Shown one piece after another: positions 11,758 to 16,755 of a stretch of 26,324 bases of DNA. A program made the translations under genes and the position numbers. The notes under the pieces were generated by a model. It did no database searches. It was not told the origin of the DNA and was given only the letters and a program-made list of their open reading frames with translations. Within the stretch, counting starts at the first letter, position 1. Every line of letters starts with the position of its first letter. The DNA comes from an uncultured Candidatus Saccharibacteria bacterium (GTDB lineage Bacteria > Patescibacteriota > Minisyncoccia > Minisyncoccales > Staskawiczbacteraceae): positions 1 through 26,324 of the forward strand of contig CAYHFP010000001.1 of the NCBI GenBank assembly GCA_964355995.1. The letters run 5' to 3'.

Positions 11758-11922
11758 ATCGCTTCGCTCTTTAGAAACCCAAGGTTTCTAACGCGTCCAC
11801 TTCGTGGCGCTGTTTTCCTACACGGAGGGGACACCGAGTTTCCCCTCCGACCCACCCCTCGGGTTCGACTCCTTCCAACACCACTCAAAAAAAAGATAGA
11901 CTTGCAGTCTACTTTTTATTTG

Positions 11923-11993
11923 AGCGGGTATGGGGAGTCGAACCCCACTCATTAGCTTGGAAAGCTAAGGTAATACCGATATACGATACCCGC
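11923..11993 (-). tRNA. tRNA-Gly(TCC)
   Basis: Acceptor gcgggta/tacccgc, anticodon arm ttagc-tt TCC aa-gctaa; CCA not encoded. Confidence 0.93.
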
Positions 11994-12015
11994 GTGACGA
12001 ATTTCAAATTAAACC

Positions 12016-12089
12016 TGGTCGGGCTGCTGGGATTCGAACCCAGACTAAATCGTCCCAAACGATTCGTGCTACCGTTACACTACAGCCCG
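12016..12089 (-). tRNA. tRNA-Pro(TGG)
   Basis: Acceptor cgggctg/cagcccg, anticodon arm aatcg-tt TGG ga-cgatt, encoded CCA. Confidence 0.93.
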
Positions 12090-12093
12090 GTAA

Positions 12094-12489
12094 TTACTTT
12101 TTATACTTGCGGAATAATTTATCATGTTGCCACACATGCCCATAATGTATTATTCTATGACAATTAGCACACACAACCGCACATTTTTCTATTTCTTTTT
12201 TTACGCGATCAAAAGCAAGGTGATTATAAGCTGCGTACCCTATGGTAAATTCTTTGTCTCGTAGATGATGGAAATCCAACACCCTACAATCTTTTATTCC
12301 ACACTTAAAACATCCACGCTTTTCTTTGTAATCTTCTAAAAACTTCCGATACTTATTGCGTAATAACTTTTTATCATTATTAAAACAATGACGACACTTT
12401 AGGCGTCGATATGTTTTGCCACTAATAGTTCCCGCCACACCAAAATCCAATTCTGGATAATATTTACTGCAATATTTACAAAGCTTCAT
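12094..12489 (-). CDS. HNH endonuclease-like protein with CxxC zinc motifs
   Basis: CKYC, CRHC, CFKC..VLDFHH..CAVVCANCHRIIH; stop codon 4 nt before tRNA-Pro. The start may be 12525. Confidence 0.8.
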   Translation of the reverse strand: MKLCKYCSKYYPELDFGVAGTISGKTYRRLKCRHCFNNDKKLLRNKYRKFLEDYKEKRGCFKCGIKDCRVLDFHHLRDKEFTIGYAAYNHLAFDRVKKEIEKCAVVCANCHRIIHYGHVWQHDKLFRKYKK

Positions 12490-12565
12490 TGCATTAATTA
12501 TAATACTTTTGGGAGCGTTTATCAAGGTTCAAATTACTTTATTTCCTATAATAAAATGATAGGTC

Positions 12566-12616
12566 ATTATAGTTTGAAAATCAAATATTGTCAAAGACCA
12601 AAATTTATGTTAGGAT
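12566..12616. promoter_or_regulatory. Back-to-back sigma70 promoters with overlapping -35 boxes
   Basis: Minus strand: perfect TTGACA (12594-12589)-17-TATAAT (12571-12566). Plus strand: TTGTCA (12588-12593)-17-TAGGAT (12611-12616), upstream of tRNA-Arg. Confidence 0.75.
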
Positions 12617-12629
12617 TCTAAATAGTTTT

Positions 12630-12701
12630 GCCCTCGTAGCTTAATGGATAAAGCAAGGCTCTTCTAAGGCCTTGATAGGGGTTCGATTCCCTTCGAGGGC
12701 A
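12630..12701 (+). tRNA. tRNA-Arg(TCT)
   Basis: Acceptor gccctcg/cgagggc, anticodon loop ct TCT aa; CCA not encoded. Confidence 0.88.
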
Positions 12702-12778
12702 CAGGAAAGGGAGAGCCAAATGCTTAATCCACAGGTTGATTGATTGACGTTAAAGCCACATTTGTTACAATTAAGTAT

Positions 12779-13276
12779 ATGGTTCAAGTCAGTTGCAAAA
12801 TATGCTCCAAAGAATTTTATGCCAAACCAAGTTGGATTAATATCGGCAATGGAAAATATTGTTCAATGGAATGTAGTCAGAAATCACAGATAAAAGGCAC
12901 CCATGTTAAATGTGAAATATGTAAAAAAGAAATATGGAGAACACCAAGCAAAATAAGGCGTTCTAAAAGCAGAAAATATTTTTGCAATAAATCATGTCAA
13001 ACTCTTTGGCGTAATAGCATAGTATATGTCGGCAAAAATCATCCGAATTGGAAGAATGGGGGAACTATGTATCGAAAGATATTACAAAGAAGTACAAAAG
13101 AAAAAATCTGTTGTTTATGCGAAATAAAAGACGAACGCATATTAGCAGTCCACCATATAGATAAAAACAGAAAAAATTCTAAATTGGAAAACCTTATATG
13201 GCTTTGTCATAACTGTCATTTTTTAGTTCATCACGATACAAAAACAGCAAAAAAACTTATGGAGGCTATAGTGTAG
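12779..13276 (+). CDS. HNH endonuclease with tandem N-terminal zinc-finger repeats
   Basis: CKIC..YCSMEC, CEIC..FCNKSC, then CCLC..LAVHHIDKNRKN...NLIWLCHNCHFLVH. Confidence 0.85.
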   Translation: MVQVSCKICSKEFYAKPSWINIGNGKYCSMECSQKSQIKGTHVKCEICKKEIWRTPSKIRRSKSRKYFCNKSCQTLWRNSIVYVGKNHPNWKNGGTMYRKILQRSTKEKICCLCEIKDERILAVHHIDKNRKNSKLENLIWLCHNCHFLVHHDTKTAKKLMEAIV

Positions 13277-13336
13277 TGGCCAGCACAACACCCTGTGGCG
13301 GTGTCAGCGGGAGTTCGAATCTCCTTAGCCTCCCCA
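13261..13336 (+). tRNA. tRNA-His(GTG)
   Basis: G-1:C73 pair, acceptor gaggcta/tagcctc, anticodon arm acacc-ct GTG gc-ggtgt, encoded CCA. Confidence 0.93.
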
Positions 13337-13360
13337 AAAGCAAACTAGCGAATTCAAAAC

Positions 13361-13991: not shown

Positions 13992-15037
13992 TTAAATTAA
14001 CTTTAAAATTTCTTCTCGCAAATCGTATGAATTGCAATGTGTTAAAACTCCTAAATAAGATTGCAGAGTTTTATTGAATTTTTCCTCCGACATTTCCTTG
14101 TTTTTTAGAGCGTTAACTTTTACTACAATATTCTTTAACATCCTATCTCTTGTTTTTACTCTTACTATTTTATGATACGGAAAAACCACATATCCTAAAA
14201 AATCAACCCCTTGATGATACTTTCTGACAACAATTTTATTTGGATGAAGTTCCAGTTTTAGATTATTTTTTAAAAAAGCATCTATTTTCGATATATAACT
14301 TTCAAACTTTTCCATGCCATCTTCTACAATCACAAAATCATCGCAATACCTTATATAGTATTTTATCCTGAGTTGATGCTTAATAAATTGGTCTAATTCG
14401 CATAGATAAACATTAGAAAATAATTGACTGACAACATTCCCCAAAGGCAAACCCTTTTCAAAACTTTTAATAATACTTTCTAGAAGCCAAATAACTTCTG
14501 CATCTTTAATTTTCTTTTTTACCAAATCAAGCAAAATATCCTGGTCAATGGAGTCAAAAAACTTTCTGACATCACATTTTAAAACATATGCCGGCTTTGT
14601 ATTATTTCTACTTTGCTTTTGCAAAAACACTTTTAATTTCTCAACAGCCCTATGCGCCCCTTTTTCATTTCGACAAGAATAAGAATCAAAAATAAAATGC
14701 CGGTCAAAAGTGGGGTATAAAATTCTAAAAATAGCGTGGTGCAATACCCTATCGCGAACACAGGCCTTGTGAATATGTCTTATTTTGGGGTCTTTAACAT
14801 AAAAAGAATAATAAGGCGAATGTTGATAGGTTTTATTTTTTAACTCTTGATAAAGCTTGAATATATTTGGTTCTAAGTTATACTCAAATTGCATAACATC
14901 AGGCTTGCTTCTTTTACCTTTTTTAAACTCGTCCCAAGCCAAAAACAAATTCTCAAGAGAAACAATATCATTAAATAAATTATCACTATGACCTTTAACC
15001 CCCCCCCCCAGACAGTTTCAATTTGCCTATCTTGCAT
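13992..15037 (-). CDS. DGR reverse transcriptase; likely ATG (15037) is out of frame across G11
   Basis: RDRVLHHAI, GLPLGNVVSQLF (DGR-type GxxxSQ), YIRYCDDF, DFLGY. The RT frame extends upstream to VKGHSDNLFNDIVSLENLF but contains no ATG. Confidence 0.92.
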
Positions 15038-15364
15038 AAAGTTTATGAATTATATAAATTATTTTATGAATACTCAAAATGGTTTCCTAAAAAAGATAAA
15101 CACATCATTGGTAAACGATGTGAGGACTTAATCTTAGACATTATAGAATTAATCTTGCTGGCAATCAATGATAAAACCGACCGTAAATTACTTATCCTGG
15201 AAAAAATCAGTGCCAAGCTCAACACCCTCAGAATGTTTATTCGTATAACCAAAGAATTGAAAATTATCAGTCTAACTAAATACGCTATTTTACAATCAAG
15301 GATTGATGAGATTGGCAAATTATTGGGTGCGTGGATAAAAAATGCACAAAAGAAAAGCCCCTAA
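14988..15364 (+). CDS. avd: DGR accessory variability determinant (Avd, four-helix bundle); likely ATG (14988) is out of frame across C11
   Basis: PILHKVYELYK..FPKKDKHIIG..LEKISAKLNTLRMFIRI..IDEIGKLLGAWIK, adjacent to RT and TR. Confidence 0.85.
14999..15009. repeat. C11/G11 homopolymer inside the RT/avd overlap
   Basis: tttaa-ccccccccccc-agacag. Confidence 0.9.
15049..15077 (-). promoter_or_regulatory. Candidate RT promoter inside avd
   Basis: Minus strand TTGAGT (15077-15072)-17-TATAAT (15054-15049), 11 nt before ATG 15037. Confidence 0.45.
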
Positions 15365-15375
15365 GGGCTTTTCTT
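15350..15375. terminator. Hairpin between the avd 3' end and the TR 3' end, possibly bidirectional
   Basis: aagaaaagccc-ctaa-gggcttttctt. Confidence 0.65.
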
Positions 15376-15384
15376 CATTATATA

Positions 15385-15508
15385 GGAACTTCGGAGCGAG
15401 CGCAGATATTGTCATTGGAGTTATCGGGGTTGTAGTTGTTGCCATAGACCTTGCTATTGCCAGAGTTGAAGTTGAGGTAAGGGACATTACCATTGGAATC
15501 GCGCGAAC
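15385..15508 (-). ncRNA. DGR template repeat (TR)
   Basis: 124-bp ungapped match to the VR, with 34 adenines and 11 AAY codons in the target frame. Confidence 0.95.
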
Positions 15509-15778: not shown

Positions 15779-15798
15779 CGTCAACTTGCGAGTTGACG
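15779..15798. promoter_or_regulatory. Candidate DGR homing hairpin directly 3' of the VR
   Basis: cgtcaact-tgcg-agttgacg, 8-bp stem with 4-nt loop. Confidence 0.6.
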
Positions 15799-16572
15799 GG
15801 GAACTGCGGAGCGAGCGCAGACAGGGCCACCGGAGTGATCGGGGCTGCAGTCGTAGCCATAGACCTTGCCATCGCCAGAGTCGAAGAAGAGGCAAGGGAC
15901 AAGACCATAGGAAACGCGCGAACCTCCCGACTTCGTCCACCTCGCGACATTCAAATGACCTCCTGTCGTTATGTGATACGCCAACTCCAACAACCAGTCC
16001 TCGAGGTGCGTCGTATCAACCAACCCTTGGCTCCGGCGCCAGTTGGCGTCTTGATTGGCATTGACGGGAGGCTCCACAGTTGCCTCAACATCAACCACAT
16101 ACGACCCGTCCCGGTAAGGGTTGCGGTCGTTGCGTTTGATGTTTTTGACTTGGTCATCGGCGAACGCGGTATCCATATCTGCGTACCACGATTTCGCCGC
16201 AAATTTCGGCTTCGCCTTGGCACCAATTTGGTGAAGTGCGTCCCGGACTTTGTTGAGCGTGACGAGACGAATTTCTTCATCTCCATCTCTGCGAAAAAAA
16301 TCCAAAACTGGCACTGTCCATCGGCCCATCCTGTCGCCCATCTCCAAGCCGGCGATTTTGGCATCGTATTCTTCGGGTTCAACGCCAAGGATTTTGTAGG
16401 TCACCCGCCAATCCAACGCGGTGGGCAGCGGTACTTCTTCAATCACCACTGGCGGATTAACTTCTACCAACATCCACTCGCCACGCAGAAGCGCTTCGGC
16501 ACGATCTTCTCCGCCGATTTTGTTGATGACGGATTCGAGCCAATTACCTGTCCTGTGTCCATACTTTGACAT
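15781..16572 (-). CDS. DGR target protein with a variable C-terminus (probably CLec-like fold)
   Basis: VR encodes SRVSYGLVPCLFFDSGDGKVYGYDCSPDHSGGPVCARSAV; probable start MSKYGHRTG. Confidence 0.9.
   Translation of the reverse strand: MSKYGHRTGNWLESVINKIGGEDRAEALLRGEWMLVEVNPPVVIEEVPLPTALDWRVTYKILGVEPEEYDAKIAGLEMGDRMGRWTVPVLDFFRRDGDEEIRLVTLNKVRDALHQIGAKAKPKFAAKSWYADMDTAFADDQVKNIKRNDRNPYRDGSYVVDVEATVEPPVNANQDANWRRSQGLVDTTHLEDWLLELAYHITTGGHLNVARWTKSGGSRVSYGLVPCLFFDSGDGKVYGYDCSPDHSGGPVCARSAVPRQLAS
15800..15923 (-). repeat. DGR variable repeat (VR) at the 3' end of the target gene
   Basis: 22 mismatches to the TR, all at TR adenines. Confidence 0.95.
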
Positions 16573-16755
16573 CACAACCTTCTTTCTCTGGCTGATAACC
16601 AGAATTATTCCCACACCTGATAGGCGGGGGCCACGAAATGTGGCGATGCCAAGCCGCCAAAATAGCAGCCATAGCCAAAAATCCTCTTTTTTAAAAAGAC
16701 TTTTGGCTATGGCTAGCTAAATTTCAATTCTAAAAGAGCTTTAAACTATGTAATA

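Follow-up and report, generated by a model that had tools for sequence, protein, structure and literature searches.

A conserved poly-G/C tract in the overlapping 5′ ends of the reverse transcriptase and avd genes of CPR DGRs: a putative contingency switch

Introduction

DGRs are, to our knowledge, the only known natural system for targeted protein hypermutation, and we are aware of little on how the timing of their activity is controlled. The DGR of the Bordetella phage BPP-1 comprises, in this order, mtd with its VR, avd, TR and brt. Homopolymeric tracts are known from the poly-G/C contingency loci of Campylobacter jejuni, Neisseria, Haemophilus and Helicobacter, where approximately 8 to 12 G/C residues lie within the first codons of surface or restriction-modification genes. 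Poly-G tracts are most unstable in the absence of mismatch repair, as in C. jejuni. Two divergent genes can be controlled by a single slippage-prone sequence, as demonstrated by the TA repeats in the overlapping hifA/hifB promoters of Haemophilus influenzae. In Thermus dnaX (A9), Shigella mxiE (T9) and prfB, a slippery run of about nine bases separates the start codon from a gene body that is out of frame.

Homopolymer phase variation and DGRs are each well known, but no published description was found of a conserved homopolymer that gates the core of a DGR via a head-to-head overlap. A homopolymer, frameshift or phase-variable gate of a DGR is not reported in the literature consulted, which included the Roux 2020 preprint, the Wu 2017 DGR survey and a 2026 RT survey. 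Here, we describe a locus in which a DGR appears to be overlaid by another mutational device of a far simpler kind, namely a slippery homopolymer that would gate both essential DGR proteins at the same time. It is situated within a stretch of 26,324 nucleotides (hereafter the window) belonging to a genome of the candidate phyla radiation (CPR), which has a size of 679 kb in 74 contigs and is 98.9% complete. The codon-aligned head-to-head overlap harboring the homopolymer is unusual, and the homopolymer persists in many phyla of ultra-small CPR bacteria. If the interpretation proposed below is true, hypermutation would be under stochastic control by a mechanism that is concrete and open to testing, which would amount to bet-hedging on evolvability itself.

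Materials and Methods

The comparative set consisted of 160 related loci from genome and metagenome collections, 151 of which were analysable and about 135 non-redundant. Reading frames were scored from the nucleotides and not from gene calls. The lengths of called genes were considered as a proxy for the frame and rejected, as callers picked internal starts even in loci that were in frame (P0134 cluster). The effect of the tract length on both reading frames was determined by simulating different lengths.

Results

The DGR of the window

TR and VR constitute a 124-nt repeat with 82% identity. All of their 22 differences are located at adenines of TR (22/22), which, together with the RVT_1, bAvd and bRT matches of the encoded proteins, identifies the element as a genuine DGR. 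The following features were assigned:

13992–15037, minus strand: DGR reverse transcriptase (RT), leader from ATG 15037, body from 15017 to the stop at 13992
14988–15364, plus strand: avd (accessory variability determinant), PF22296 bAvd, leader from ATG 14988 out of phase with the body
14988–15037 (50 bp), no strand: head-to-head overlap of the 5′ coding ends of RT and avd, with ATG/His antisense pairs
14999–15009, no strand: homopolymer tract, C11 on the plus strand and G11 on the RT strand, with a G8–G14 counterpart in 106 related loci
15385–15508, minus strand: TR, 124-nt repeat
15800–15923, minus strand: VR, at the 3′ end of the target gene
15781–16614, minus strand: DGR target gene, 277 aa, no Pfam match, VR at the C-terminus
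15779–15798, minus strand: hairpin directly 3′ of VR, 8-bp stem and 4-nt loop, z −2.9, overlapping the target stop codon
15349–15376, minus strand: strong terminator-like hairpin directly after TR, z −5.8, overlapping the avd 3′ end on the other strand
15049–15077, minus strand: sigma-70-like promoter match (TTGAGT, 17 nt, TATAAT), 10/12 positions, weak evidence only

The order of the genes is target-VR, TR, inverted avd and RT, and the VR ends 17 nt before the stop codon of the target ORF (16614..15781). The RT matched RVT_1 with an E-value of 9e-21 and has its nearest relatives in Staskawiczbacteria. Its best match among solved structures was the bRT of BPP-1 (8ub7, E 1e-43), aligned over residues 6–302. 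As this alignment begins at the sequence DNLFNDIV of the window, corresponding to residue 6 of bRT, the preceding 18-residue leader of the RT is lineage-specific. Avd matched PF22296 (bAvd) with an E-value of 1.6e-19 over profile positions 3–106 of 107, while a sequence comparison of Avd with solved structures yielded no match.

A T-tailed hairpin after TR (window 15340–15385) overlaps the avd stop codon. This hairpin could terminate both convergent transcripts, in which case the RT would need its own promoter inside the avd antisense strand. The promoter match 15049–15077 lies within the antisense of avd and ends 11 nt before the RT ATG 15037. It was graded as weak because the number of such sites did not exceed that in shuffled sequences and because the TATAAT box is also forced by Avd codons. 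Elsewhere in the window (11900–13340), tRNA genes (Gly, Pro, Arg, His) are clustered and interleaved with two small cysteine-rich ORFs (12094–12525, minus; 12740–13276, plus), which gave weak zinc-finger and HNH endonuclease matches.

The tract within the RT/avd overlap

The C11 run on the plus strand is the sole G/C run of at least seven bases in the whole window. It specifies Gly-Gly-Gly in the RT leader (as G11) and Pro-Pro-Pro in the Avd leader. The RT ATG (15037–15035) is the antisense of an Avd His codon and, conversely, the avd ATG (14988–14990) is the antisense of an RT His codon. Owing to this reciprocal pairing of start codons with in-frame His codons, both genes are shifted equally by any change of the tract length.

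This anatomy can be read directly from both strands. On the minus strand, the RT frame contains a TGA at 15020–15018, followed by NCLGGGVKGHSDNLFNDIV, and continues through the run into the conserved N-terminal region; neither ATG nor GTG nor TTG occurs in this frame between the TGA and the conserved region. On the plus strand, the avd frame contains a TAA at 14996–14998, followed by PPPPDSFNLPILHKV, i.e. Pro-Pro-Pro-Pro and the conserved LPILHK. ATG 15037 (minus) and ATG 14988 (plus) are each 2 mod 3 from their own gene body. The RT leader starting at ATG 15037 is one base out of phase with the RT body, with the break located at the tract, and the same is true for avd.

The simulations revealed that with a tract of 9 or 12 bases, RT and Avd are both in frame from their ATGs. 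At a length of 10 or 13, the RT is in frame only from TTG 15021 and the Avd ATG frame is broken or truncated. With 11 bases, as assembled, neither of the ATG-initiated proteins is in frame. As G10 and G13 would permit synthesis of the RT from TTG 15021, two of the three phases may be ON for the RT. These data agree in full with the initial annotation, which had located a C11 run inside a 50-bp RT/avd overlap, had stated that neither gene possesses an in-frame ATG upstream of its conserved region (TGA 15020–15018, TAA 14996–14998) and had predicted that the same slip by +1 (C12) or −2 (C9) restores both genes. All of its coordinates were correct.

Long G/C runs in the host genome

The whole genome contains three G/C runs of at least nine bases compared to 0.26 expected, and two of them reside at DGR RT/avd junctions. 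The second junction belongs to another DGR-type RT (contig C31:300–1360, L191/L164), which is 50% identical to the RT of the window and stands head to head with an avd-like gene. Its tract is G10 (C31:337–346) and the avd ATG is one base out of phase; this RT can be read without interruption from a TTG that precedes the tract, and an ATG follows just after the tract. The contig ends inside avd, so that no TR or VR is visible on it. The third run, a C9 (contig C12:10161–10169, L190:1362–1370), lies in the gap separating an ORF of 361 aa from one of 151 aa that is convergent with it; it had no Rfam match and overlaps small ORFs only. MutS (PF00488) and MutL (PF01119) domains were not detected in this 98.9% complete genome. 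In the same groundwater sample (run X2, loose end at window 15017), a related avd/RT junction of another organism with a C9 tract was encountered.

Conservation of overlap and tract

A head-to-head avd gene was present in 125 of the 151 analysable CPR loci. A run of 8 to 14 G at the same spot on the RT strand was observed in 106 of the about 135 non-redundant loci, with modal lengths of G9 and G10 (G8, 3 loci; G9, 45; G10, 43; G11, 11; G12, 3; G14, 1). The homologs also share the position of the start codons. On the strand opposite their RT ATG (leader M-Q/N-x-R-x-I...) lies the conserved His codon of the Avd motif LPILHK, and opposite the avd ATG (leader M-T/K-x-N/F...PPP) lies the conserved His codon immediately preceding the RT motif (I/L)F..II. 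By this ATG/His antisense pairing, the RT and Avd leaders are codon-aligned on opposite strands.

In an RT tree with 133 rows, the tract was present in 101 rows, spread over the entire tree and many CPR phyla, and its presence changed at least three times on well-supported branches. One clade of 11 members lacks the tract and has short, non-overlapping starts; elsewhere, tract losses are scattered. In another clade of about 20 loci (among them L004, L014, L022, L034, L040, L043, L089, L094–L098 and L107), TR is located directly upstream of RT and no avd was detectable within 4 kb. Sixteen of these loci nevertheless carry G9–G12 in the RT leader. Retention of the tract in a clade without detectable avd indicates that the tract gates the RT in its own right and not only Avd.

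As a check of its proposal, the initial annotation had suggested surveying homologous DGRs for the overlap and for tract lengths, expecting a mixture of in-frame and out-of-frame states. Both expectations were met: the overlap is conserved (125/151 loci) and the phases are mixed (18/103 in frame). Its further expectation that homologs vary in tract length was fulfilled even by near-identical strains (see below).

Start codons and reading frames of the related loci

In long-leader relatives whose run has been broken by substitutions (L018, L032, L071, L078, L104, L124, L126 and L128), the RT is in frame from the upstream ATG without exception (8/8), and in those with a head-to-head avd, the upstream avd ATG is in frame too. 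By contrast, only 18 of the 103 loci with a tract of at least eight bases are in frame (Fisher 3.5e-6). The observed status of the eight tract-less relatives identifies the ATGs as real starts.

This result bears on the possibility that the tract is irrelevant, i.e. that translation begins at TTG 14948 (RT) and TTG 15023 (Avd) and the run is a mere spacer between divergent genes. TTG 15023 is indeed an in-frame alternative start of avd, which yields a protein of 113 aa with the full bAvd domain (positions 3–106 of 107), and Avd may be made from it whatever the tract length. A sister clade with short back-to-back starts and no overlap is also compatible with a spacer. However, a start at TTG 14948 would remove NLFNDIVSLEN, a segment that aligns with residues 6–16 of the solved BPP-1 RT and that every homolog has conserved, even those with short leaders. 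Moreover, wherever the tract was lost, both long leaders are in frame from upstream ATGs (8/8), and a hypermutable run across the whole tree is not expected of a neutral spacer. We therefore regard this explanation as very improbable.

It is hardly tenable, too, that the DGR is decaying and that the frameshift represents the first lesion of a pseudogene. Although neither ATG frame is open in the assembled sequence, RT and Avd have intact bodies in the window, and the TR/VR differences are exclusively adenine-specific. Dozens of lineages with genes that are intact in all other respects show this lesion too, again at the run. In the comparative set, the RT body was free of stop codons in all but 6 of about 139 loci, and the out-of-frame loci are thus not pseudogenes.

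The phases of the 103 loci are not evenly distributed (chi-square p 4e-7). Phase 1, in which one base fewer is needed, is dominant though not fixed (60/103); phase 2, in which one base more is needed, accounts for 25/103 and includes the state of the window. In-frame states are rarer than expected by chance (18/103 vs 34 expected, p 2.5e-4). In 54 of 106 loci, the RT frame contains neither ATG nor GTG nor TTG.

Such a distribution might result from programmed recoding, in which either the RNA polymerase slips on the run or the ribosome shifts by +1 on GGG-G (RT) or CCC-C (Avd), so that genomes out of frame would still yield a small, tuned amount of RT and Avd. The depletion of in-frame genomes, the dominance of the +1 phase and the intactness of the RT bodies, even though a canonical start is missing from the RT frame in roughly every second locus, are in line with this idea. 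The tract is also almost never shorter than 8 to 9 bases, and at least nine bases approximate the length of the RNA:DNA hybrid. Shifts by +1 are classically associated with sites of the type GGG-G and CCC-C. On the other hand, none of the three phases is missing, and within one population the strains have different tract lengths in their DNA, most of them carrying the in-frame G9. Furthermore, 4 to 5 bases are enough for ribosomal shifting and 9 to 12 would not be required, while transcriptional slippage has been documented mainly for A/T runs. A stimulatory element for recoding was not identified at the locus. Recoding is the main rival reading and cannot be dismissed, although we judge it clearly less likely than switching at the DNA level.

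Length polymorphism between near-identical strains

Tract lengths were observed to differ between strains that are otherwise nearly indistinguishable. L028 (G10) and L110/L111 (G9) are identical over 1400 nt apart from the tract. Ten assemblies of one Wildermuthbacteria-type strain from different samples (L170–L179, P0134 cluster) contain G9 (seven assemblies), G10 (two) or G11 (one), whereas 2235 nt of their RT-side flank are invariant; related proteins with GGGG imply G12 as well. The remaining variable sites of these ten assemblies are 29 VR columns (alignment columns 192–278) and a few scattered substitutions. The DGR is active in this population and the tract is the only other recurrently polymorphic site. 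These ten assemblies, taken from different samples, clearly document natural diversification by a DGR while it is still going on. In the gene calls, an Avd of 123 aa was present in the G9 assemblies alone.

Polymorphic tract lengths were also found in the P0179 and P0174 clusters. The cluster closest to the window (L083, L165, L167–L169; 74% amino-acid identity) has G10 in five assemblies, which is the same phase as that of the window, and the protein record P0182 of this cluster implies an in-frame G11. A second assembly of the window's own strain was not found, and length polymorphism has therefore been demonstrated in relatives only.

Two further observations concern the immediate surroundings of the tract. 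In the cluster L180–L185 (P0176, P0177, P0079), two overlapping ATGs in different frames (ATGCATGAAT) precede the tract, and each of them is used by protein records; two of three tract phases would therefore give RT, though with different leader peptides. In L166 and L180, T-to-G substitutions at the tract edge changed G10 to G12 and G10 to G11, leaving the total length unchanged.

Reliability of the assembled tract length

In the window, the OFF state might be an assembly artefact caused by a consensus error, the true sequence being C12 (or C9) with both genes in frame. Homopolymers of 11 bases are error-prone and the contigs of the four best public runs were only 3–5x deep; those of X1 broke at the tract and those of X2–X4 missed it. 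K-mer support for the tract is poor, as unitigs stop at 14994 and begin again only at 14997. However, out-of-frame tracts are the majority in more than 100 independent assemblies, the most frequent deviation is a surplus of one base, whereas homopolymer artefacts usually are contractions, and the closest relatives share the phase of the window. An error at this particular site thus appears improbable, though possible. The conserved tract would stand even if the OFF state of the window were to prove erroneous.

A sequencing artefact was also considered as a general explanation and was rejected on the basis of the out-of-frame majority and of the dominant offset by one extra base. Some consensus tract lengths in the assemblies could still be errors.

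Discussion

The most likely interpretation of the data is that the tract works as a random on/off switch of the DGR. More precisely, we consider it probable, albeit far from certain, that it is a slipped-strand contingency switch moving RT and Avd in and out of frame together. In this model, the C11/G11 run would serve both genes as a simple-sequence contingency tract, being part of the 5′ leader that RT and Avd share, and a slip by one base during DNA replication would shift both proteins jointly. A population would accordingly be a mixture of ON cells (G9/G12; possibly G10/G13 with RT only) and OFF cells (G11, as assembled). Because the host has no detectable mismatch repair, a run of such length should change often. 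As expression data do not exist and no RNA run contains the locus, DNA-level switching within populations and the control of hypermutation by the tract are inferences.

A contingency locus requires a tract in the 5′ coding region of about eight bases or more, whose change in length shifts the frame, as is the case here. Maintenance of the tract by selection, judged by an excess over the composition-based expectation, is likewise supported by three long runs in the genome compared to 0.26 expected and by its presence in 101 of the 133 tree rows from many CPR phyla. The proposal of a single stochastic switch, with which the initial annotation had concluded, is supported by the conservation of overlap and tract, the mixed phases and the polymorphism between strains; synthesis of Avd from TTG 15023 remains possible.

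Simple neutral ON/OFF switching, however, does not predict that in-frame states are scarce and that one out-of-frame phase is dominant. Both features could point to recoding or to selection for the OFF state, which cannot be separated here. It is conceivable, if rather doubtful, that the tract is a conserved recoding site which keeps most genomes deliberately out of frame and allows a trickle of RT and Avd from both strands. If this were true, the site would be a built-in attenuator of targeted hypermutation common to many CPR phyla. The tract is also of consequence for annotation, since many RT and avd genes of CPR DGRs have been called with wrong, shortened starts or have been missed because of it.

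As a contingency switch, which is the reading we prefer, the tract closely resembles the poly-G/C loci of C. jejuni, Neisseria, Haemophilus and Helicobacter. What they have in common is a G/C homopolymer of about 8 to 12 bases in the first codons, a low-GC genome without mismatch repair, modal lengths of G9–G10 and near-identical strains with different lengths, by which the gene is moved into or out of frame. What separates the CPR tract from these loci is that the enzymatic core of a hypermutation system is gated instead of surface or restriction-modification genes, and that one tract serves two genes on opposite strands via a codon-aligned head-to-head overlap. Moreover, the host is an uncultured CPR bacterium in which switching has not been directly observed. 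Control of two divergent genes by one slippage-prone tract is reminiscent of the hifA/hifB TA repeats. There, the spacing of the promoters is altered, whereas the tract described here is located in both coding regions and acts on the frame.

With the recoding sites of dnaX, mxiE and prfB, the locus shares a run of about nine bases between the start and an out-of-frame body as well as the predominance of one out-of-frame phase. Contrary to them, the run consists of G/C and not of A/T, all three phases exist and the length is polymorphic at the DNA level. Finally, the element itself is similar to the BPP-1 DGR in that it possesses a bRT homolog, an Avd-family partner, adenine-specific TR/VR mismatches, a target gene whose 3′ end carries the VR, and a hairpin following the latter. 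It differs from BPP-1 in its gene order, with an inverted avd between TR and RT, and in the lineage-specific N-terminal leaders of RT and avd, which overlap head to head and contain the homopolymer. For BPP-1, we know of no description of such a homopolymer gate.
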